IMG/VR virus record: IMGVR_UViG_3300031800_000537
Coordinates: 1-53,326 of that record
DNA length: 53,326 nt
Strand: one strand, 5' to 3'
DNA from: a virus
Lineage: Duplodnaviria; Caudoviricetes
The position numbers and the translations under genes were made by a program. The notes beneath the pieces were generated by a model. It worked only from the letters and a program-made list of their open reading frames with translations. It did no database searches and was not told the origin of the DNA. Positions 2,233-52,990 of this stretch are shown here, one piece after another; position 1 is the first letter of the stretch; each line of letters begins with the position of its first letter.

Positions 2233-2737
2233 AGTTTAGGGGGTATTGCTGACCATAGCGTTTTTTTCTCGCTTTTTTAATTAGGTTGTCTTTTGTCTCC
2301 CAACCAAAAAGATGCACTTCTTTCGGCTTTTTTTTGTCATAGCAAACGCCCAAGTAAACATCCACGTTTTTCATCTTCTCAAGGTCTTTCTTTTTTTCAC
2401 ACGGCACTTTTAAGTGTGGGTCTTTCATAACCATCCCGTTCCCGTGGTCAATGAATGATTTTACGTCAACTTTGCCGCCCAACGCATCTATTACCATGTC
2501 GTAGCCATCGTCGCCGTGCTTATCGAAAATCCTTTCGTCTATTTGGACTCCAAAATGCTTGGCTACCGCTATTTCTCCTATTAGTCCCGATGCGTGTGTA
2601 GCTTCCGAACTGCCAGCCTTATCGGAAAGATGCGCGTGTCTGCCGCGACCAAAATATCTTTCCTTCTCGTTCCGTTTTTTTCCTATTTCTTCGGCTTTAT
2701 TTATTTCTTCGTCTGTTAGTTTTACAATTACTCTCAT
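2189..2737 (-). CDS. hypothetical protein, possible PD-(D/E)xK nuclease fold
   Basis: GEIAV...DDGYD...VDVKS pattern. Confidence 0.45.
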   Translation of the reverse strand: MRVIVKLTDEEINKAEEIGKKRNEKERYFGRGRHAHLSDKAGSSEATHASGLIGEIAVAKHFGVQIDERIFDKHGDDGYDMVIDALGGKVDVKSFIDHGNGMVMKDPHLKVPCEKKKDLEKMKNVDVYLGVCYDKKKPKEVHLFGWETKDNLIKKARKKRYGQQYPLNYVLYENELNPIPTH

Positions 2738-3462
2738 AGATTCTCCAAAATTTTTATTGTCTCCTCTGGCCCCGTAACTGGAAAAACCTCCCCGTCACCA
2801 TTGGCCCTAATGTCTTGCGCTATATCGTAGTCGTTTCCGCCTTCATTCGTTTTGTCGCCAAAGAACATCATCCTACCTCCTATATTAGCACGAATATATT
2901 TGCTTGCAAGTGATTTGTTTTTTCCTTTGGGTTGTATGTCCATGCTTATTCTGCCGCCTATAAGAATATCTATATTTGGATATTTGTCTCTCAAACTAGA
3001 CGCTATACTCTCCCTTTCCCCGTGTATCTTGTCCCATTTGAAGTAAGCCTTTCTTTCTTCCATATTTGAATCTCTCCCCGCGACGGAAAAATTCATCATG
3101 CCTGACCTGTGTTCTAAATAGTTATTTTTCTTAACGGGATACGGGGAACTCATTTGGAACTTACACAAATCTGAAATAAGCTCAATAGGCGGCTTCCATT
3201 TATTTTGGTAAATCAATTCCTTCTTGCCGTTGACGACCCAAAGCTCATTAGCCATGCTGCAAAAAACACCCTCCAACCTCTGAAGTATGCTGGGTACTAT
3301 TTGGTGTTCTACCTTGTCGAGTCCACTACCAGCAACTATGTAGACATCTTTATTTGCCATCCAAGAGAGGAAACTAACAATGTGACCCATCTGCATCTTT
3401 TTTTGAGGAAGGGTTAGCGTGCCGTCAACATCAAATAGATAGCTTATATTTTCTTCGCCCAT
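2734..3462 (-). CDS. HAD-IIB phosphomannomutase (eukaryote-type PMM family)
   Basis: FDVDGTLT, EHRSGMMNFS, GGRISMDI, FFGDKTNEGGNDY. Confidence 0.85.
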   Translation of the reverse strand: MGEENISYLFDVDGTLTLPQKKMQMGHIVSFLSWMANKDVYIVAGSGLDKVEHQIVPSILQRLEGVFCSMANELWVVNGKKELIYQNKWKPPIELISDLCKFQMSSPYPVKKNNYLEHRSGMMNFSVAGRDSNMEERKAYFKWDKIHGERESIASSLRDKYPNIDILIGGRISMDIQPKGKNKSLASKYIRANIGGRMMFFGDKTNEGGNDYDIAQDIRANGDGEVFPVTGPEETIKILENL

Positions 3463-5144: not shown

Positions 5145-5831
5145 TCAAGACATATGAGCGCATAAAATAAACATATCAAGGTGTCCTTGTTGGGTTGTGT
5201 TTGCCACCACAGGGCTTCCCCAGTGCCACACTTTGCTATCGTCTACCACCACCATTTCGCCATCGTCAAGTTCATATTTCAAAAATGGCTCGCTTTCGTG
5301 TGTATTAAGTGGCCCACCTTGGTCAACCTCGTATCTATTTTTGTAAAGATGCACTTCCCCACCGCTGATGTTGTGTCTGTTTATTGAAACCATGCCTACT
5401 CGGTCAAAGCCATCTTGGTGAACGCCTTCTGGCGCAAGCTCGGACTTTCCGTTAAGCGTGACGCAGCGCATTTGATGAACGTCAATCTGCTGCCCGTCTA
5501 CCATGTTATTTGCGCGTTTAAAGGTTAGGCATATTTCCTTGAACCCATCGCTTTGCAACACTTCTTCTTCAACGTTTTCAAATTTGCGCTTCATTCCCCC
5601 TTGGTGCTTATTATACTCCGTACTCTGCGTAAACTCTTTTACGGGAAGCTGCCTTATTTCCGCTCCCTCATTAGCGTCCCAAAAACTGGTGCGAAGCTCA
5701 ATTACGGAATAACGCCTGAGTCTGAACTTGCCGTCCTTGTGGTCTGTCTCCGGAAGCCTGTTAAATGAATCTTGTAGCTCTGCTACAGCAGATTTACTTA
5801 TTTTTATTAATTCTATAATAGTTTCATTCAT
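5145..5831 (-). CDS. 2OG-Fe(II) dioxygenase (BsmA/2OG-Fe_Oxy_2-like)
   Basis: RLRRYS, VHQMR, PEGVHQDG (HxD) and distal WH. Confidence 0.8.
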   Translation of the reverse strand: MNETIIELIKISKSAVAELQDSFNRLPETDHKDGKFRLRRYSVIELRTSFWDANEGAEIRQLPVKEFTQSTEYNKHQGGMKRKFENVEEEVLQSDGFKEICLTFKRANNMVDGQQIDVHQMRCVTLNGKSELAPEGVHQDGFDRVGMVSINRHNISGGEVHLYKNRYEVDQGGPLNTHESEPFLKYELDDGEMVVVDDSKVWHWGSPVVANTTQQGHLDMFILCAHMS

Positions 5832-7790: not shown

Positions 7791-8360
7791 TCAGGGAAGA
7801 CGATTTTCAATCTTTGAAATGATCCGTAGGAAAAAGCCCAAGGCTCTAGCGAAAAGCACTAGGAAAAATCTTAATACGAAACCGACACACCACCGCGGTT
7901 TGTACCACCACTTCTTTTTGGCAGCGACTTCTTTCATTAACACCTCTCGTGTTCGCTCTTGGAATTTTACTCGGTCTGTGTTCTTATTTTTTTTCCATTC
8001 GAGAAGTTCGATTTCTTTTAAATCCCCCTTCCAGAATAGGGTTTTGAATGACATAACGAAATCGTATTTGTCTTCTAAATGTACCCCGTGGAAAATCAGT
8101 TCTCCTGTGTACTCTTTTTTTTCTATACCTGTAGAAAAGGGTTCTATGGAATCTTCTTCAACTTTGAAATCCATCTTCTCTTCGTAGATCTGCCCGTCTG
8201 ATTCTATTGAAAACGCGCTAAAAAGATTTTCAGAAAGGGTCTGATTTTCGGAAAAAGTAAATATCGCCTCCTTCCAATCGGGAGGATTTTCCATTTCTTC
8301 CGTCAACTCTTCCGGTATAGGCAGCGGATACTCGACCTTGACTTGGTTTAAATCAAACAT
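7791..8360 (-). CDS. hypothetical protein with hydrophobic/basic C-terminus
   Basis: ORF 7791..8429; likely start MFD at 8360. Confidence 0.6.
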   Translation of the reverse strand: MFDLNQVKVEYPLPIPEELTEEMENPPDWKEAIFTFSENQTLSENLFSAFSIESDGQIYEEKMDFKVEEDSIEPFSTGIEKKEYTGELIFHGVHLEDKYDFVMSFKTLFWKGDLKEIELLEWKKNKNTDRVKFQERTREVLMKEVAAKKKWWYKPRWCVGFVLRFFLVLFARALGFFLRIISKIENRLP

Positions 8361-8955
8361 CCCAGTCCGTCCTTTGAAGTTCTTTCCTAAGATAGTAAAC
8401 CCTCGACATAACCGTTCCGACTGGGACATTAGCCTTGCGGGAAGCCTCTTCGTAAGTCATCCCCCTTAGTAAAACTAGATCGGCTATTTGCTGTTTCTCC
8501 TCGGATAAGGAGCTCATTATTTTATTAAATTTTTTAGACTTAAATGAGAATCCATCTTTTTCCTCCAAATTTTTAGCTGGCGTTTCTATTTCTGGGCGAA
8601 TTTTAGCTAAGAGAAACTCTTCTCCTGACTCGCCGCTGTCATTGGGTTTGCAAACGTCCTCGAAGAAGACTTCTCTCTTTCTTTTTCTTACGTAATCGTA
8701 GAATGAATTGAAAGCTATTCTGATAATCCAAGTGAGCAGCTTGCTTTTATTTTGAAAAAGGCCAATTTTTTTCCAAACTTTTATCCAAGTTATTTGCGCT
8801 ACCTCTTCGGCAAGAAGGTAATCGCCGCATTTCGATAATATAAAAGATTTTACCCTATTGTTATGTTTCTCATAGACAAAATTAAAAGCTTCAGAATCTC
8901 CCTCTTTAAGCAGCCGACAAAGCTCTTTTTCGCTTAGTGATTCATAATCAATCAT
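8353..8955 (-). CDS. ECF-type RNA polymerase sigma factor
   Basis: GDSEAF, AEEVAQITWIKVW, TWIIRIAFN, MTYEEAS...PVGTVMSRVY. Confidence 0.9.
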   Translation of the reverse strand: MIDYESLSEKELCRLLKEGDSEAFNFVYEKHNNRVKSFILSKCGDYLLAEEVAQITWIKVWKKIGLFQNKSKLLTWIIRIAFNSFYDYVRKRKREVFFEDVCKPNDSGESGEEFLLAKIRPEIETPAKNLEEKDGFSFKSKKFNKIMSSLSEEKQQIADLVLLRGMTYEEASRKANVPVGTVMSRVYYLRKELQRTDWDV

Positions 8956-12523: not shown

Positions 12524-13090
12524 TTACACAAGAGTTATAAAAGCGTCCTCGTAAAAATCAAATATCATTACTACCCTGTCCTTCTTCGTGTTGTTTTGCG
12601 CTTCGTGTTCGATGGTGTCGTCAAATATAAGTAGCTCCCCTTCTCTCCAAGTCTTCGTTTCCCCTCCTACCCTTAACCAGCAATCCTTTTCGGGAATTAT
12701 CACTCCGTCTTTAGTGGGCTTTGGTACAGACAGGGCTAGATGGGATCGTATGATTCGATTATCTGCAATATAACCAGTATGGGGGTATATGTGCGCGCCA
12801 GCCCTGAGCCAGCTAAACCCGACTCCATGAAGGTGGCTCTGGTCTATTTCACTGATTAATGAGGTGGTCTCAGGGTAATCAGAGGGAGAGTTGAAAAGAA
12901 ACCTCCCATCTGCGTAAAGAACGCGAACCATCCATTTTCCATTATGAATTACCTCTGGGGCATCTTTGGTAACTGCCCAAGGGTGGAACTTTCTGCTGCC
13001 AAACTCATTAAATTCCTTGAGCGCCGTGGGGTAGATTTTAGTAATTAAATCAGCGTGCTTTAATTTTTTAGCATTTATAAACATAAACAA
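12524..13090 (-). CDS. aspartyl/asparaginyl beta-hydroxylase family dioxygenase
   Basis: FSWL...IYPHTG, RSHLAL, WREGELLIFDDTIEHEAQN, DRVV. Confidence 0.88.
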   Translation of the reverse strand: MFMFINAKKLKHADLITKIYPTALKEFNEFGSRKFHPWAVTKDAPEVIHNGKWMVRVLYADGRFLFNSPSDYPETTSLISEIDQSHLHGVGFSWLRAGAHIYPHTGYIADNRIIRSHLALSVPKPTKDGVIIPEKDCWLRVGGETKTWREGELLIFDDTIEHEAQNNTKKDRVVMIFDFYEDAFITLV

Positions 13091-15081: not shown

Positions 15082-15158
15082 TGGTACCCCCGGAAGGACT
15101 CGAACCTTCGACCCTCTGTTTAGAAGACAGATGCTCTATCCAACTGAGCTACGAGGGC
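15082..15158 (-). tRNA. tRNA-Arg(UCU)
   Basis: GCCCTCG...TCTGT-CT-TCT-AA-ACAGA...GGTTCGAGTCC...ACCA, full cloverleaf. Confidence 0.95.
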
Positions 15159-15161
15159 GGC

Positions 15162-15235
15162 TGGAGCGGGTGGCGAGAATCGAACTCGCGTTATCAGCTT
15201 GGAAGGCTGGAGTAATACCATTATACGACACCCGC
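15162..15235 (-). tRNA. tRNA-Gly(UCC)
   Basis: GCGGGTG...CAGC-CT-TCC-AA-GCTG...GTTCGATTC...CACCCGCTCCA. Confidence 0.93.
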
Positions 15236-17254: not shown

Positions 17255-17992
17255 CTACTCAACTTGCTTACCGCCCTTGGGTAGCTTAATCTTCGGCTCG
17301 CCTTCCTCCTCATCCAGCTTCTTCATCTCTTTTTCTGCGTCGATCACGGTCATACCCGCGTCGCTGTACTCACCTTGACTGTATTCATCAGTGAAAATCT
17401 TAGTCGTCTCTAGCCCCATTTTCTTTTGTTCCTTAGCCTTTACTTTAGCTTGTTTCGCTCTTTCCTCGTCTCTCTTGGTTATGTCCTCTGGGAAGAGCGT
17501 CTTGTCAAAAAGAAAGTCCCTGAGGTGGCCGACAGTTTGTATCTTATTAAAATCCATCAGCGTGTTGTCTATCTCCACACCGTATTTATCTTCTAGATCG
17601 AGAAGCATCTCGATGGCCTCAAGCGAATCCAAATCAAGATCCTCCTTGAGTTTAGACTTCAGGGTGACTTTCACCCCCTCTTTCGCCACGTTTAACGAAA
17701 TTTCCTCCTTAAGCACCTTAGTGAAAAGCTTCTTGTCGGGACAGAGGCCCATTTTTTCCTTGCCAGACGCGGCATGTTTTGCCTTCTTATCTGCAATAAT
17801 CTGACCCTTGTTTACCACCTTACCCGCCTCCGCGCTAGTGCCCTTCTTGCCTGTCATCCCTTTGCGCGCACCGTAAATGATGTCATCTGGCCACGTGCTG
17901 GGGTCAGAACTGTCTACCACTGGCTTGTGGCTAACAACATTACGGGACACCTTGTTTCCTAATTTTACTGGTTTCTTTTTTTTAGGTTTCAT
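17255..17992 (-). CDS. acyl carrier protein domain with long charged N- and C-terminal extensions
   Basis: LKEDLDLDSLEAIEMLLDLEDKYGVEI...IQTVGHL, phosphopantetheine Ser in DSL. Confidence 0.85.
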   Translation of the reverse strand: MKPKKKKPVKLGNKVSRNVVSHKPVVDSSDPSTWPDDIIYGARKGMTGKKGTSAEAGKVVNKGQIIADKKAKHAASGKEKMGLCPDKKLFTKVLKEEISLNVAKEGVKVTLKSKLKEDLDLDSLEAIEMLLDLEDKYGVEIDNTLMDFNKIQTVGHLRDFLFDKTLFPEDITKRDEERAKQAKVKAKEQKKMGLETTKIFTDEYSQGEYSDAGMTVIDAEKEMKKLDEEEGEPKIKLPKGGKQVE

Positions 17993-18236
17993 TCTTTTCC
18001 TTTATTAGGGTTAGCTCCAATTTGGAGCACATAATTTTATACTGCTCTATATATTCAGGTTTAACCTGATTTGCTGCGCATGTCAATTTGTGATGTAGCG
18101 CGGGTAGTTTTACCGCAGTTATGGTGTTCATGTCTATCTCCTTCATACCTCCAAGCGGAAACAAATAATTCACTACATATAAAACAATCCCTTTCTCTTC
18201 GTCTGTTAAGGTCTCTAGGACATGCCTATAAATCAT
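17982..18236 (-). CDS. hypothetical protein
   Basis: 84-aa ORF overlapping both neighbours. Confidence 0.6.
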   Translation of the reverse strand: MIYRHVLETLTDEEKGIVLYVVNYLFPLGGMKEIDMNTITAVKLPALHHKLTCAANQVKPEYIEQYKIMCSKLELTLIKEKNET

Positions 18237-18613
18237 TCCCAGCTTTCCACGATTGTCGTCGCTGTCGCGTACTCTCTAGTATGACTCACGCTTACGTACA
18301 CATCGCATTCTAATTTGCAGAACGTTTTCAGGGCGTGCTCGCTGAATTGAATATAGGGCTGGCCAGACTCTCTTCTCCTAAGTTCTATGTGCTTCCATTC
18401 CATCCTAGCTCCTATGCCGTGCCCGAAACATTTGGCGGTGGCCTCCTTAGCCGCAAACCTAGCGGCAACATACTGCGCTGGGTTTCGATGAGACAAACAG
18501 TATTCTTTTTCGTCTGTCGTTAATATTTTATTTAAAAATCTGTCACCCCACTTCTCCAAAAGTCGTTGGACTCTAGCTACATCAACTATATCTGTTCCTA
18601 TCCCTAATATCAT
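18233..18613 (-). CDS. acpS: holo-[ACP] synthase
   Basis: GIGTDIV, ARFAAKEATAK, SGQP, VSVSHT. Confidence 0.95.
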   Translation of the reverse strand: MILGIGTDIVDVARVQRLLEKWGDRFLNKILTTDEKEYCLSHRNPAQYVAARFAAKEATAKCFGHGIGARMEWKHIELRRRESGQPYIQFSEHALKTFCKLECDVYVSVSHTREYATATTIVESWE

Positions 18614-19669: not shown

Positions 19670-19746
19670 TGGCGGGAGCGACGGGACTCGAACCCGCGAC
19701 CTCTGGCGTGACAGGCCAGCGCTCTGGCCGATTGAGCTACGCCCCC
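19670..19746 (-). tRNA. tRNA-Asp(GUC)
   Basis: GGGGGCG...CTGGC-CT-GTC-AC-GCCAG...GGTTCGAGTCC...GCCA. Confidence 0.95.
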
Positions 19747-21644: not shown

Positions 21645-22253
21645 ATGAAAACATTGTTTATTGGAATAAGTGGAGTAGCCGCATCAGGTAAGGATTTATT
21701 TTTCAACCTCCTAAAGAACGAGTTGGGCAAAAGAGGAATCCCTGCTCATAAATACTCACTAGCACACTCCCTTAAGGAGGAAGTCAATGGGTACCTCAAG
21801 AAACACCATCGAGTAGATATATTTAACTGTACTAGAAGAGAAAAAGATTCTGTTAGACCATTTTTAGTATTTCACGGAAGCATGAAGAGGGCCGCGTCTG
21901 AGGGCAGACATTGGATAGAAATTTTAGACAAAAAGATAAAAGAACAAAACTTAGCGGGAGTTATTTGTGTTACAGATATAAGATACAACGAATTCGAAGG
22001 GGACGAAGTAGACTGGATAAAGGGGGAGCTTGGGGGCTCACTTGTTCACATAAAACGGGAAGGGATAGAGCCAGCAAACGAGGAAGAAACACGGCAAGAC
22101 CCGTCTTTAATAAATAAAAGTAATTATAAAATCGAATGGCCCACGTTACAGGGGTGTCAAAAAGACATAGAAAGCCAGCTAACAAAGGAATATATAATAA
22201 AATTCTCTGATTGGCTGCTAAATGAAAATCCCAGACGACTTCCTAGCGAATGA
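21645..22253 (+). CDS. deoxynucleoside monophosphate kinase-like P-loop kinase
   Basis: ISGVAASGKD, SLKEEV, VTDIRY. Confidence 0.75.
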   Translation: MKTLFIGISGVAASGKDLFFNLLKNELGKRGIPAHKYSLAHSLKEEVNGYLKKHHRVDIFNCTRREKDSVRPFLVFHGSMKRAASEGRHWIEILDKKIKEQNLAGVICVTDIRYNEFEGDEVDWIKGELGGSLVHIKREGIEPANEEETRQDPSLINKSNYKIEWPTLQGCQKDIESQLTKEYIIKFSDWLLNENPRRLPSE

Positions 22254-22797
22254 AGTAAAAGAAAAAGACTGCGAAAATAGCTTGGTCGAACTCATAGGTA
22301 GACATTCTAATCTGTGCTACAAAGTATGCCAAAAATATATGCCAGTGATGAATGCATCCGGAATTTTTGTAGATGACGTGCTTGGCGACAAAGACTACAT
22401 AATTTATCATTCCGCCAAGACTTTCGATCCCACTCGGAAAACTAAATTTTCAACTTGGCTAGGCAATCAGGTTAGATATCATTGCCTTAATAAAATTAAT
22501 AAAAATAAAAAATACGTAACAACAGAAGACCAAGAACTAAGTTTTCTTATAGATAAAGACGAGCAAAAGGATAATACAGACGAACTCAAAGACTACATCT
22601 CGAATTTGCTAAAAAGAATAAAAGACAAACGTATTAAACAAATTTTTGAATTAAGGTATTTTAGTGACGAAGAAAAAATGACTTGGACCGCCGTCGCGAA
22701 AAAGGTTAAGGTAAGCTCACAAACAGCGATAAATCTGCACAACAGGGGGTTATCCATTTTAAAGAAGAGAATTAAGAAAGAAGCTGCTGTTCGTTAA
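22222..22797 (+). CDS. sigma-70 family RNA polymerase sigma factor
   Basis: FDPTRKTKFSTW (region 2) and LRYF...MTWTAVAK (region 4 HTH). Confidence 0.85.
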   Translation: MKIPDDFLANEVKEKDCENSLVELIGRHSNLCYKVCQKYMPVMNASGIFVDDVLGDKDYIIYHSAKTFDPTRKTKFSTWLGNQVRYHCLNKINKNKKYVTTEDQELSFLIDKDEQKDNTDELKDYISNLLKRIKDKRIKQIFELRYFSDEEKMTWTAVAKKVKVSSQTAINLHNRGLSILKKRIKKEAAVR

Positions 22798-24700: not shown

Positions 24701-27154
24701 ATGAACTCCCTAAAGGTCACTCAGGTAAAGAAAAGAAACGGAAGACTTCAGAAGCTCAACATCAACAAAATTAACCTTTGCGCTCAAAGAGCATGCGAAG
24801 GGTTAGATGATGTATCAGCTAGTGAAGTAGTTATCGACGCTAACGTTCAGCTTTTCGAAAAGACACCCACTAAGGACATCGACAGGGCTCTCATCATGTC
24901 CGCGAGAGCCAAGATCGAAAAAGACCCCAATTATTCCTACGTAGCCGCCAGATTATTGCTGGGTAACATCCATAAGGAGGTTTTCGGCAGCAGCGTAGAC
25001 AAAGACGCGTTTGACCACCAATACAGACTCTCGTTCATCAGGAATATTAAACTCCTAGTTAAAGAGGAGGTTTTAGACGAGAAGCTCCTCGACTTTGACC
25101 TGAAGAGATTATCTTCGGTTCTAGTCCTAGAAAGAGACTACAAATTTAAGTACCTTGGGTTACAGATATTATATGACCGCTATTTTCACTCTCTAGAGCA
25201 GAGAAGGCTCGAATCTCCACAATCTTTCTGGATGAGAGTAGCTATGGGCCTAGCAATTAATGAAGATGACAAAGAAGAAAAAGCAATTGAGTTCTATCAC
25301 TGCATATCTAACTTCAGATTATGCTGCTCAACTCCCACGCTATTTAACAGTGGTAGCACTCATTCTCAGCTTTCTTCTTGCTATCTTAACACTTTCGATG
25401 ACTCTATTGATGGGATCTTCGAAGGACTCTGGCAAGAAGCAAGGAAATCCAAGTTCGCTGGCGGACTAGGGTTCGATGTTACCCCGTTTAGAGCTTCTGG
25501 CTCTTACGTTAAGGGAACCAATGGCTTATCAAGCGGATTAATCCCTTGGCTAAAGCTTTACAACGACACTCTCATTGCCGTTGATCAGGGAGGAAAGAGG
25601 CCCGGTGCTGGCTGCGCTTACCTTGAGCCTTGGCACCTAGACATCGAAGACTTCCTAGATCTAAAGAAAAATACTGGCGAAGAAAGAAGGCGATGCCACG
25701 ACATGAACACAGCTAACTGGCTCCCTGACCTTTTCATCAGAAGGGTGAAGAAGGACGGAGATTGGTACCTGTTCAGCCCAAGCGACGCGAGAGACCTGCA
25801 CGACCTGTACGGAGAGAAATTTGACAAAAGATACAACCACTACTGCAGGGAAGCGGACAAAGGAGAAATAACCAACTTCAAAAAATTGCGAGCCAAAGAC
25901 CTCTGGAAAAAGATGCTTCGCTCCCTATATGAAACCGGTCACCCTTGGATGACCTTTAAAGACAGCTCTAACTTTCGTTATTCTAATAGCCATGAAGGTA
26001 TTGTGCATAGCTCCAACCTCTGCACTGAAATTTTCCTACATACTAAGCCCTCTCAATACGAAAATGGGGAAAAATCCGTAGTGGGGGAGACTGCCGTTTG
26101 CAATTTGAGTTCAGTGAACCTCAAAGAACACCTAATGGAAAACGGTAAACTAGACTTTGAACTATTAGCTAACACCATTTCTATACAAATGAGGATGTTA
26201 GATAATGTAATTGATTTAAATTTTTATCCGACCAAAGAAGCAAAGAAATCAAACCTAAAGCACAGACCTGTGGGTGCTGGCAGCATGGGGTGGGCAGACG
26301 TTTTTCACTCTTACGGGATTAACTATTCCTCAGAGGAAGCAGTTAGACTTTCCGACGAATTGTACGACTATATGTCCTTCCATTGCCTGCTTAATTCCAG
26401 CGTCCTTTCAGCAGAGAAGGGAAAGTACGAAACCTACGAAGGATCGAAGTGGTCCAAGGATAAACTTCCCATAGATACATACGAAGAATTAATGGATTAC
26501 ATCGGTGAAGACCCGATCACCTTCAACGAAAAGACCTACGTTCCCGAGTCAAACTGGGAGTACCTTCGCAAGCATATTAAAGACCATGGAATGCGTAACA
26601 GTAACACAATGGCGATTGCTCCCACCGCCACAATCTCCTACATTCAGGGGTGTAGCCCCGGCACAGAGCCAGATTTTTCCATCCTGTTTGTCTATGAAAG
26701 CAAAAGCGGAAACCTTCTTATTATAAATGAATGGTTTGTAAGGGAGTGCAAGAAGCTCGGCATATGGGACCAGAACTTCATGGAAAGTATCAAAGCGGTT
26801 GATGGGGACGTCTCTAGACTCAACGGCGAGCTCCCCGAAGAACTGAAGAGCCAGTATCGCACCGCCTTCGACCACGATCAGTTCAAATTAATCGATTCTG
26901 CTGCTGCAAGACAAAAGTGGATTGACATGGGTCAGTCTTTAAATTTATTTAACAATAAAACTTCATTAAAGTACTTGAATGATTTATACATTCATGCTAG
27001 AAATAGAGGTCTGAAGAGTACGTATTACTTAAGAAACAAAAGCGCAAGCCAAATCGAAAAGTCCACGGTTGCTGCTGTAAGGGTCGAGATCGCCGACGAG
27101 GAGTCCGTCGCCTGCAGCATAGACAAAGGGCCAGATTGTGAAAGTTGTCAATGA
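24701..27154 (+). CDS. nrdA: ribonucleotide reductase class I alpha subunit with ATP cone
   Basis: VKKRNG cone, TPTLFN, SSCY, SNLCTEI, VCNL, APTAT, STYY, C-terminal CESC. Confidence 0.97.
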   Translation: MNSLKVTQVKKRNGRLQKLNINKINLCAQRACEGLDDVSASEVVIDANVQLFEKTPTKDIDRALIMSARAKIEKDPNYSYVAARLLLGNIHKEVFGSSVDKDAFDHQYRLSFIRNIKLLVKEEVLDEKLLDFDLKRLSSVLVLERDYKFKYLGLQILYDRYFHSLEQRRLESPQSFWMRVAMGLAINEDDKEEKAIEFYHCISNFRLCCSTPTLFNSGSTHSQLSSCYLNTFDDSIDGIFEGLWQEARKSKFAGGLGFDVTPFRASGSYVKGTNGLSSGLIPWLKLYNDTLIAVDQGGKRPGAGCAYLEPWHLDIEDFLDLKKNTGEERRRCHDMNTANWLPDLFIRRVKKDGDWYLFSPSDARDLHDLYGEKFDKRYNHYCREADKGEITNFKKLRAKDLWKKMLRSLYETGHPWMTFKDSSNFRYSNSHEGIVHSSNLCTEIFLHTKPSQYENGEKSVVGETAVCNLSSVNLKEHLMENGKLDFELLANTISIQMRMLDNVIDLNFYPTKEAKKSNLKHRPVGAGSMGWADVFHSYGINYSSEEAVRLSDELYDYMSFHCLLNSSVLSAEKGKYETYEGSKWSKDKLPIDTYEELMDYIGEDPITFNEKTYVPESNWEYLRKHIKDHGMRNSNTMAIAPTATISYIQGCSPGTEPDFSILFVYESKSGNLLIINEWFVRECKKLGIWDQNFMESIKAVDGDVSRLNGELPEELKSQYRTAFDHDQFKLIDSAAARQKWIDMGQSLNLFNNKTSLKYLNDLYIHARNRGLKSTYYLRNKSASQIEKSTVAAVRVEIADEESVACSIDKGPDCESCQ

Positions 27155-27327
27155 AAACTATAAAAGAACAAATCTTATCAGCTATGTACAAGAGCGTAGA
27201 TAGACAAAACCGTCATATCGCCAACGCCAACCATCAGAGCGCAGAATCAGAGAAGTGGCTGCAGGTAAATTTAAGACACAATTTTAATGAGATAAGCAAA
27301 AAGGAAAACGATGGCAGGCAGCAGTAA
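27151..27327 (+). CDS. small hypothetical protein between nrdA and nrdB
   Basis: 58 aa, overlaps both genes. Confidence 0.45.
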   Translation: MKTIKEQILSAMYKSVDRQNRHIANANHQSAESEKWLQVNLRHNFNEISKKENDGRQQ

Positions 27328-28330
27328 GACAGGACTACTCTTAGGTGAAGAGGTAGCAGGGGTTAATCAAATTCTACCTCACAAACACAAGTTTGCGTGG
27401 GACTTGTTCCTCAAAGGCACGGCTAACAACTGGTCTCCAGCGGAGATCAACATGAGTGAGGACGTAGACCAATGGAAAAGCGGTATGCTCACTAATGACG
27501 AAAAACTCTTAGTCAAGCGCTGCTTGGGCTTCTTTGCGGGATCCGAGTCTCTAGTTGCTAACAATCTTTTGCTTACTGTTAATCGATGGATAACAGATGC
27601 AGAATGTAGGCAGTATATTTTAAGGCAAGCCTACGAAGAGTCCTTGCACAACTGGACAGTCGTTACATGCTGCGATAGTTTTAGTCTTAGAGTCGCCGAA
27701 GTTTATGAAGCATACCTAAACATACCATCCATAAAGGCTAAGGATGATTTTCTAATGGAGATTACCACAGATGTTAACCGCCCAGACTTTTCCACAAAAA
27801 CCGTAGAAGGTAAAAGGGAATTCCTTAGGAATCTTGTCACGTTCTACATCGTATGCGAGGGGACATTCTTTTTTAGTGGCTTTGCCATGCTTCTCGCGCT
27901 AGGCAGACAGAACAAGCTGCCGGGGTTGTCTGACCAGATTCGCTACACACTCCGCGATGAGAGCCTACACATCCAATTTGGGACATATTTAATTAATACC
28001 ATAAAAGAACAGTACCCCACGGTATGGACTAAAAAGTTCGAAGCAGAGACCGTTGAACACGTCAAAAAAGCTATCGAACTTGAGGTGCGGTACGTCCACG
28101 ACGTATTACCCCGTGGCATACTGGGGCTGAACGCTGATATGTTTGTTGAATACATGGAATACATCGGGAATAGGCGACTCGAAGGCATAGGTATTGATTA
28201 CCGCTTTCAGGGAGACAGCAACCCATTCCCTTGGCTATCCGAAGTAGTAGACACTCAAGCAATGACCAATTTCTTTGAAAGAAAAGTTAAAGACTATCAA
28301 AGCTCCGGTTCTCTCGTAGACGATTTCTAA
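27311..28330 (+). CDS. nrdB: ribonucleotide reductase beta subunit, class Ic (R2c)-type residues
   Basis: Ligands E79, E110/H113, E183, E217/H220; Val117 at the radical-Tyr position; NFFE...Y tail. Confidence 0.95.
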   Translation: MAGSSKTGLLLGEEVAGVNQILPHKHKFAWDLFLKGTANNWSPAEINMSEDVDQWKSGMLTNDEKLLVKRCLGFFAGSESLVANNLLLTVNRWITDAECRQYILRQAYEESLHNWTVVTCCDSFSLRVAEVYEAYLNIPSIKAKDDFLMEITTDVNRPDFSTKTVEGKREFLRNLVTFYIVCEGTFFFSGFAMLLALGRQNKLPGLSDQIRYTLRDESLHIQFGTYLINTIKEQYPTVWTKKFEAETVEHVKKAIELEVRYVHDVLPRGILGLNADMFVEYMEYIGNRRLEGIGIDYRFQGDSNPFPWLSEVVDTQAMTNFFERKVKDYQSSGSLVDDF

Positions 28331-29006: not shown

Positions 29007-29357
29007 TCATGACTCAAAAGATTTTCCGCAACCACAGGTAGTCTTGGCCTTTGGGTTTGTTACCTTGAAACCCCCGTCATTAAGATCATCCGAAAAATCC
29101 ACCACTGAACCACGGAGATGATCCGCACTAATTTTGTCCACCACAACGAACAACCCTTCGAAGTCAATCCTATGATCCCCTTCCCGTTCCTCGTCAAAAA
29201 CCAAACCATACTGCATTCCAGAACAGCCTCCTTGTTCTACGTATACCCTTAGCGCATTTTTAGCAGTATCTGCCTCGGATTCCAATAAGCGCCTTGCTTC
29301 GGTAAAAGCGGCTGGAGTTAAATCAATGCACTTTTTAACTGGAAGGGTCTCTCTCAT
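29007..29357 (-). CDS. A-type Fe-S cluster carrier (HesB/IscA/ErpA family)
   Basis: LRVYVEQGGCSGMQY, NPKAKTTCGCGKSF. Confidence 0.92.
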   Translation of the reverse strand: MRETLPVKKCIDLTPAAFTEARRLLESEADTAKNALRVYVEQGGCSGMQYGLVFDEEREGDHRIDFEGLFVVVDKISADHLRGSVVDFSDDLNDGGFKVTNPKAKTTCGCGKSFES

Positions 29358-29371
29358 GCTCTTATTAATTA

Positions 29372-29383
29372 TATATCGTCCAC
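29372..29383. repeat. TATATCGTCCAC motif copy
   Basis: Exact 12-mer, intergenic, adjacent to TATAAT on the minus strand. Confidence 0.75.
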
Positions 29384-29394
29384 CTATTACTTTT

Positions 29395-29628
29395 CTACTC
29401 TTTTTTTCCCCAGTCAGTCCTATTCCACATCCTTTCATGGAAGTAGTAGAGGAACATCTTGGTTAGTATTTCTACCCCAGCTATGGCGGTGGCCCAGCTT
29501 AACTTCCCAGTTATAAGCCAAGAGATAATAAACGTATCCATTGTCGCAGTGACCCTCCAAGTCAAGGCCTTAAATAGTGACCTTCTACTCGAGTCTTCCT
29601 GAGTCGGTAATTTTAATTTGAACTTCAT
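29395..29628 (-). CDS. DUF2061 membrane protein
   Basis: RSLFKALTWR...SWLITG...YYFHERMW. Confidence 0.8.
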   Translation of the reverse strand: MKFKLKLPTQEDSSRRSLFKALTWRVTATMDTFIISWLITGKLSWATAIAGVEILTKMFLYYFHERMWNRTDWGKKE

Positions 29629-52660: not shown

Positions 52661-52936
52661 ATGGCTGATAAACAAAAATTCATTCAATGTGATTGTTGGG
52701 GCGAAGGTATGCTCGTTACCAAGTTTGACGACGAAGAAGAAATGTACTTTAGCTACTGGCGTCAGGGTATCAATCCCATCAAATTACCTTGGCTGGTGCG
52801 ACTGAAACTGTGCTGGATGGTGCTGACGAAAGGCAATGTCTACGATGACCAAGTCGTTCTAAATAAAGAAAAAGCTATGGAGCTTGCGTTATGGATTCAA
52901 GACGAACATGATAGCTCCGGTAGCTCAACGGGTTAG
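52661..52936 (+). CDS. hypothetical protein
   Basis: 91 aa from ATG 52661; stop codon lies inside the tRNA. Confidence 0.6.
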   Translation: MADKQKFIQCDCWGEGMLVTKFDDEEEMYFSYWRQGINPIKLPWLVRLKLCWMVLTKGNVYDDQVVLNKEKAMELALWIQDEHDSSGSSTG

Positions 52937-52990
52937 AGCACACGCCTTATAAGCGTGAGGTTGTGGGTTCGAGGCCCACTCGGAGTACCA
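52914..52990 (+). tRNA. tRNA-Ile(UAU)
   Basis: GCTCCGG TA GCTC...GAGC A CACGC-CT-TAT-AA-GCGTG...GTGGG TTCGAGG CCCAC TCGGAGT ACCA. Confidence 0.93.

Follow-up and report, generated by a model that had tools for sequence, protein, structure and literature searches.

A viral gene for the small (beta) subunit of a class I ribonucleotide reductase (RNR), in which valine stands at the site of the radical tyrosine, raises the question of where such an enzyme would keep its oxidant and on which metals. The type of RNR reveals the trace metals needed for viral replication. The DNA analyzed here, called the window throughout, comprises 53,326 bases and is a virus record of IMG/VR with an estimated completeness of 30%. 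Two of its genes encode the RNR:

24701..27154, + strand: nrdA, large subunit of the class I RNR (817 aa), with a single ATP-cone at the N-terminus
27311..28330, + strand: nrdB, class I RNR small (beta) subunit, 339 aa, class Ic-like

The RNR genes and the dimetal site

The product of nrdB matches the Pfam family Ribonuc_red_sm (PF00268) with an E-value of 1.2e-74. Its own translation carries the metal ligands E79 (in the motif FFAGSESLVAN), E110 and H113 (both in YEESLHNW), E183, E217 and H220, with V117 at the radical-Tyr site. The best solved relatives are structures of the Chlamydia trachomatis R2c protein (1SYY, 2ANI and 4D8F, E 7e-107) and 6Y2N (3e-101), followed at a distance by R2 proteins of class Ia type (about 1e-34 or weaker) and by R2lox proteins (9e-11 to 3e-9). 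The phmmer alignment to 1SYY joins residues 16-221 of NrdB to residues 26-231 of the chain without gaps, and all seven sites therefore lie at an offset of -10 from those of C. trachomatis R2c. The column of V117 holds F127 in C. trachomatis R2c and Tyr in 2ANI, which is the F127Y mutant. The same alignment was inspected for a tyrosine near metal site 1: none replaces residue 117, and Tyr129 of C. trachomatis corresponds to Thr119.

W41, F187, Y212 and Y329 of NrdB align with W51, F197, Y222 and Y338 of the C. trachomatis protein, and we take these four to be the electron-relay residues whose role is known from the C. trachomatis literature. An AlphaFold2 model of NrdB, built from a 53-row alignment, has a mean pLDDT of 90 and a pTM of 0.88. 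Foldseek places it closest to the C. trachomatis NrdB structures 4M1I, 4D8F and 1SYY (TM 0.86-0.88, rmsd 1.3-1.4 A, 49% identity), and 4M1I is the Mn(II)Fe(II) form of that protein. The two proteins thus share the six ligands including the first Glu, a redox-inert residue at the Tyr site, the four aligned relay positions and the fold (TM 0.88, rmsd 1.3 A at best). They differ around the metal site at Val117/Phe127, Thr213/Ile223, Asn114/Thr124, Trp115/His125 and Thr119/Tyr129, with the phage residue given first.

Among the features of class Ic, a Glu as first ligand, the remaining ligands E, H, E, E and H and a redox-inert residue in place of Tyr are present in NrdB, and a relay Trp, a C-terminal Tyr and a class I alpha partner are found as well; the window protein departs from the characterised enzyme and from the cellular members in having Val, not Phe, in the position of the Tyr. 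Leu, Ile and Val at the Tyr site are documented in R2c proteins according to the accessible part of PMC3824934, which cites Hogbom 2010. The original prediction had described the gene as a viral NrdB with the sequence signature of class Ic, naming the Glu first ligand, a Val in place of Tyr and a constant offset to C. trachomatis R2c. The translation and the phmmer alignment agree with it on these three points, and the R2c proteins as closest relatives, the ligand set and the source in a virus record bear out the assignment.

The partner gene nrdA is located 156 bases upstream of nrdB. Its product consists of an ATP-cone, an all-alpha domain and a barrel domain, with Pfam matches to Ribonuc_red_lgC (E 3.7e-174), to Ribonuc_red_lgN and to the ATP-cone at residues 8-93. 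The translation contains NLCTEI, STYY and a C-terminal CESC, which we take to be functional motifs. Its best solved relative is 5IM3 (E 5.7e-233, versus 1e-141 for eukaryotic R1 and 1e-78 for Escherichia coli R1), presumably the class Ia enzyme of Pseudomonas aeruginosa. In the available text of PMC9669993, the alpha subunits of P. aeruginosa and C. trachomatis both belong to the clade NrdAz, and many alphas of NrdAz and NrdAq partner betas with a redox-inert residue at the radical site. The same text gives three ATP-cones for the C. trachomatis NrdA, in contrast to the single one in the window.

Relatives of NrdB are encoded by 444 of 449 pattern-matched stretches in IMG/VR and thus occur on at least 444 contigs there; the best 80 have 82-97% identity to it. 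Within these best 80 loci, nrdA adjoins nrdB on the upstream side in 78. The other common neighbours of nrdB are genes for a dNMP kinase (59 of the 80 loci), a glycosyltransferase (58), a sigma factor (44), a dCMP deaminase (43) and a signal peptidase (41).

Conservation, phylogeny and the pocket beside residue 117

A total of ten positions, W41, E79, E110, H113, E183, F187, Y212, E217, H220 and Y329, are invariant in the window and its best 80 viral relatives (81 of 81 loci), and hence the pattern in NrdB is not due to chance. Site 117 in these 81 loci is Val in 65 and Ile in 16. A similar picture is seen in the 120 best database homologues (81-88% identity), with Val in 106, Ile in 13 and Leu in one. 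The acidic tail of NrdB, ending in DDF, is conserved. Comparison with the viral locus L002 (97% identity) gives a dN of 0.015, a dS of 0.71 and a ratio of 0.021; against the other 79 of the 80 loci dS is saturated, with dN near 0.1. NrdB is under strong purifying selection.

At a greater depth, the best 150 representatives at 50% identity display several combinations of the first three ligands and the Tyr site. The most frequent is D-E-H-Y (37), followed by E-E-H-F (17), E-E-H-V (10), E-E-H-Y (7), E-E-H-L (5), E-E-H-I (2) and E-E-H-A (2), and the remainder are fragments or degenerate. Many representatives of the Val/Ile clade (P0121, P0124, P0125, P0129, P0136 and P0147) are 577-684 aa long and carry an insert of about 300 aa that divides the RNR domain in two. 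In P0129 the insert opens with a Cys that directly follows the EE of the metal motif EExxH, and its last residue is an Asn, followed by Ser; in this respect it is intein-like. A search for inteins in these six long proteins gave one weak match to Intein_splicing, below the cut-off.

Cellular relatives were surveyed with one genome per prokaryote species (at least 80 loci), using search patterns biased to the motif EExxH[NT][HW]T. Among the matches listed, 76 cellular proteins have 45-50% identity to the window protein (none above 50%) and the same ligand set and relay residues, and every one of the 76 has Phe at site 117 and Ile at 213. Their holders belong to Planctomycetota, Verrucomicrobiota, Chlamydiota, Bdellovibrionota, Actinomycetota (Saccharopolyspora, Nocardiopsis, Amycolatopsis) and Alpha- and Gammaproteobacteria.

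A phylogenetic analysis of NrdB was performed as a quick IQ-TREE run on 78 hand-chosen rows and 334 columns, with rows taken among others from the viral loci (six of 80), the genome loci (27 of 80) and the representatives (42 of 150). The proteins with Val, Ile or Ala at site 117 all group together in a single clade (23 rows, SH-aLRT 97). Chlamydiota, Verrucomicrobiota and Planctomycetota fall into a Phe clade (14 rows, 96) together with Bdellovibrionota, Hydrogenedentota, Abditibacteriota and Chloroflexota, and a third clade of 29 rows (98) combines actinobacterial and proteobacterial Phe types with Asp/Tyr types. In this tree the window NrdB stands in a clade separate from the Phe clade of Chlamydia type; the backbone between the clades is unsupported, several rows are long, and support values from a quick tree need caution. 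Forcing the Val/Ile clade and the 14-row Phe clade together, a grouping named after the tree had been seen, changed the log-likelihood by -7.9 (p-AU 0.312), which neither rejects nor demonstrates a sister relation of the two. The nearest NrdB proteins from isolated phages are those of Acinetobacter phage MD-2021a (45% identity) and Pseudomonas phage vB_PpuM-Peetri (43%). Their first ligand is Asp and their radical site holds Tyr, unlike in the window protein, and in the tree they branch next to the Phe clade of actinobacterial and alphaproteobacterial proteins.

The surroundings of residue 117 were compared in 120 close viral, 8 deep Val/Ile, 76 cellular Phe-type and 17 Asp/Tyr-type proteins. 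Position 213 stands four residues ahead of the ligand E217, and from the ligand spacing in the yeast numbering we take it to correspond to the Ile of the pocket around the tyrosyl radical. Three positions separate the groups:

Position 213: Thr in 120 close viral and 7 deep Val/Ile proteins; Ile in 76 cellular Phe-type and 17 Asp/Tyr-type proteins
Position 114: Asn in 119 close viral and 8 deep Val/Ile proteins; Thr in 76 cellular Phe-type proteins; Thr in 7 and Ser in 5 Asp/Tyr-type proteins
Position 182: Cys in 108 and Ala in 12 close viral proteins; Cys in 7 deep Val/Ile proteins; Phe in 50 and Met in 26 cellular Phe-type proteins; Phe in 9, Leu in 4 and Met in 2 Asp/Tyr-type proteins

The hydrophobic pocket of the tyrosyl radical consists of Phe243, Phe247 and Ile269 in the numbering of yeast Y2 (PMC3824934). 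Given Val or Ile at 117 and the changed second-shell residues Thr213, Asn114 and Cys182, the pocket beside metal site 1 is predicted to be smaller and more polar in the Val/Ile lineage. Judged from these substitutions, site 1 of the clade may differ in its behaviour from that of the Chlamydia enzyme.

A preprint (PMC12918982, bioRxiv, February 2026) describes, in the portion available, a marine viral 'subclass Ic-like' clade of 269 class I alpha sequences from GOV 2.0 that adjoins NrdAz. The betas encoded beside these alphas are without the radical Tyr and have Ile or Val instead. In the same portion, its authors state that no member has been characterised, leave the cofactor open, and hold the clade apart from class Ic because site 1 may act unlike the Chlamydia enzyme. 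The preprint reports an anti-correlation between the group and modelled iron, with the highest levels at the deep chlorophyll maximum; the ocean distribution of the clade, according to the accessible discussion, fits no single-metal pattern. The window shares with it the origin from marine viral contigs and a beta with Ile or Val; its alpha may also lie near NrdAz, the best solved relative of the window NrdA being 5IM3. The close homologues of NrdB bear source labels of Tara and other marine metagenomes. Going by these matching features, the window NrdB probably belongs to the marine phage Val/Ile lineage named 'subclass Ic-like' there. The finding is real but not new, as the lineage is already flagged in PMC12918982. 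The Glu first ligand, Thr213 and Asn114 are not mentioned in the portion of that source available, and the co-variation of Thr213 and Asn114, not seen mentioned there for its clade, is a modest addition.

Oxidant and cofactor of the phage enzyme

The nrdA-nrdB pair would act as a two-gene class I RNR of the phage and would make deoxyribonucleotides during infection. With Glu as the first ligand and no oxidisable side chain at position 117, the oxidant most likely resides on the metal cluster. Val117 could not take up the oxidizing equivalent, which the complete dimetal site of six residues would hold instead. The cluster would be Mn(IV)/Fe(III) as in C. trachomatis R2c, with Mn in site 1, beside residue 117, and the oxidizing equivalent would be passed from the cluster to Trp41, then to the C-terminal Tyr329 and finally to NrdA. 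In our assessment, NrdB is probably a working RNR beta subunit that stores its oxidant on the metal cluster, most likely Mn(IV)/Fe(III). Homology, ligand set, fold, conservation, selection, the pairing with nrdA and the viral origin are demonstrated by the data above; the metal identity and the radical-transfer route are what we infer for NrdB, and the Mn/Fe cofactor is a best guess, unproven for the phage protein.

Points against the guess are the Phe, in place of Val, in all 76 cellular relatives of Ic type among the matches listed and the altered second-shell positions of the Val/Ile clade. According to the part of PMC4118035 available, C. trachomatis R2c requires Mn/Fe for high activity and carries Mn in site 1, and metal preference follows no simple structural rule. 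Its active state is described there as stable to hydrogen peroxide and capable of being assembled by it, and its resistance to NO is presented as a hypothesis. A tolerance of peroxide or NO in the RNR of a marine phage is a hypothesis borrowed from the Chlamydia enzyme by analogy, and iron saving is at least as plausible a reason for an ocean phage. A tyrosine-free and perhaps one-iron enzyme in abundant marine phages of 158-178 kb would tie viral replication to the supply of Fe and Mn in the ocean. The phage protein would also provide a second and very different test case for class Ic, with a Val/Thr pocket versus the Phe/Ile pocket.

A functional beta subunit could also employ a different oxidant, such as a dimanganese cluster of class Id type, a high-valent diiron cluster or an undescribed cofactor, tuned by the pocket of Val/Ile117, Thr213 and Asn114; we regard this as unlikely but deserving of attention. 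The proteins with Val, Ile or Ala at site 117 make up a clade by themselves (23 rows), and the residues facing site 1 follow that division closely: Thr213 occurs in 120 of 120 close and seven of eight deep members against Ile in all 76 Phe-type and all 17 Asp/Tyr-type proteins, and Asn114 in 119 of 120 close and eight of eight deep members against Thr in all 76 Phe-type proteins. The ocean distribution of the clade, which in the available discussion of PMC12918982 shows no single-metal pattern, also fits this reading. However, the six ligands are identical to those of R2c, the fold is nearest to the Mn/Fe-loaded C. trachomatis NrdB, and no positive pointer to another metal pair was found. A further proposal takes the Val/Ile lineage as a separate class I RNR subclass, so far seen only in viruses, whose pocket (Val/Ile117, Thr213, Asn114 and Cys182) gives a cofactor or redox tuning other than that of Chlamydia. 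We consider this rather improbable; if the lineage is such a subclass, adaptation to hosts of the iron-poor open ocean is a possibility.

It is very unlikely that NrdB, in the manner of yeast Y4, is a beta-like subunit with an accessory or non-catalytic role and depends on a host beta with a tyrosyl radical, even though it has no radical Tyr of its own. All metal ligands are intact, unlike in known inactive partner subunits, and both Tyr329 and the acidic DDF tail are conserved under a dN/dS of 0.021. Moreover, each of four related records (three of them at least 96% complete) contains exactly one PF00268 gene, which makes NrdB the only beta subunit of the phage. An identity as R2lox, a Mn/Fe-binding protein that likewise has Glu as its first ligand and no radical Tyr (PMC3824934), can be practically dismissed, since R2lox structures score only 9e-11 to 3e-9 versus 7e-107 for R2c, nrdB is paired with nrdA in 78 of 80 loci, and R2lox is without the C-terminal Tyr (PMC3824934) that is present as Y329 in all 81 viral loci.

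The phage lineage, its host and other genes of the window

Related complete genomes have a size of 158-178 kb, including G001 (178 kb, 100% complete) and G003 (158 kb, with direct terminal repeats). In G003, a PHROGs scan revealed a large terminase (TerL), tail fibres and a tape measure protein, the last at least 2802 aa long, along with a DNA polymerase, a clamp loader and a DnaB helicase, and this gene content identifies the lineage as a large tailed phage. No relative of its TerL above 27% identity was found among phage isolates, and the lineage therefore cannot be placed beside a cultured phage. An NCLDV origin was considered and rejected: PF04451 was not found in the four related records, a weak negative as the control genomes were silent too, and the PHROGs content of G003 is that of a tailed phage. 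A T4-like origin was rejected as well, PF07068 being not found in the same four records, again a weak negative with silent control genomes.

Four Val/Ile NrdB loci (L082-L085, 60-85% identity) appear among the matches listed from the collection of "cellular" genomes. Contigs of this phage lineage are held in MAG bins labelled Pseudomonadales, Cellvibrionales, Woesebacteria and Alphaproteobacteria. In G007, a 210-kb contig (C4) encodes NrdB and a TerL homologue with in-frame stops on the same molecule. The bin G009 (contigs C1, C51 and C105) contains a TerL of 71% identity and, on another contig, a second NrdB that is 44% identical; in G008 a TerL homologue was not found. Two of the four loci (those in G007 and G009) are demonstrably phage DNA, and because phage contigs occur in MAG bins, the taxonomic labels of those contigs should not be read as hosts.

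The original prediction had also taken NrdB as support for a host of the PVC group, and this part is not supported. The Val/Ile clade lies apart from the Phe clade with the PVC sequences, that Phe clade also includes Bdellovibrionota, Hydrogenedentota, Abditibacteriota and Chloroflexota, and cellular relatives of several other phyla are equally distant (45-50% identity). A hint independent of NrdB comes from a relative. The window and four related records were screened for DUF1501, and one of the five contains it, namely G002 (96% complete, 87% NrdB identity); it was not found in the window or in the other three related records. The gene is as follows:

L164, at G002:C1:160605-162379: DUF1501 protein, partial, at the contig end, 55-66% identical to proteins of Planctomycetota and Verrucomicrobiota

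With 201 genomes searched per group, this fragment has matches at E <= 1e-35 in three Verrucomicrobiota (up to 62% identity) and 16 Planctomycetota (up to 66%), and in no Gammaproteobacteria even at E <= 1e-20. A PVC-like DUF1501 in one related phage, not in the window, is a weak hint at a PVC host. The aldehyde dehydrogenase of the window is uninformative on the host, with a best identity of 37% among 201 Verrucomicrobiota genomes; an 80% match to it in G009 is located on another contig of the MAG bin that also holds the phage TerL. Overall, we put the chance of a PVC host for the phage at about one half or slightly lower.

About 700 bases downstream of nrdB, a gene for an A-type iron-sulphur carrier was considered as a conserved iron-delivery partner of the RNR:

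29007-29438, - strand: IscA/ErpA-like A-type iron-sulphur carrier (PF01521, E 8.7e-16; phrog_17776)

It was not found in the flanks of any of the 80 related viral loci, and it was rejected in that role as an accessory gene specific to the window.

Several other functions are encoded elsewhere in the window:

1780-2232, - strand: dCMP deaminase
2734-3462, - strand: eukaryotic-type phosphomannomutase (PF03332)
5145-5831, - strand: 2OG-Fe dioxygenase (PF10014)
8353-8955, - strand: first sigma-70-family factor, in none of the 80 related loci within the flanks
12524-13090, - strand: Asp/Arg beta-hydroxylase
22222-22797, + strand: second sigma-70-family factor, in 44 of the 80 related loci
15082-15235, 19670-19746 and 52914-52990: four tRNA genes, Arg(TCT), Gly(TCC), Asp(GTC) and Ile(TAT)

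At 17255-18613 on the - strand, a protein with a phosphopantetheine attachment site adjoins a 4'-phosphopantetheinyl transferase; judging by the two annotations, the phage would bring along a carrier protein and the enzyme that activates it. A co-directional block of about 20 kb (30016-50078, + strand) contains genes for sugar-nucleotide and glycan synthesis. They encode GT2, GT10 fucosyltransferase, GT25 and GT4 enzymes, two GHMP kinases, an SIS isomerase, a transaldolase and cytidylyltransferases, as well as an 878-aa fusion of epimerase and C-methyltransferase, a GDP-mannose-dehydratase-like enzyme and the aldehyde dehydrogenase mentioned above. The block is mostly unshared with the relatives: GT30016 occurs in two of the 80 loci, the transaldolase in one and the aldehyde dehydrogenase in eleven.
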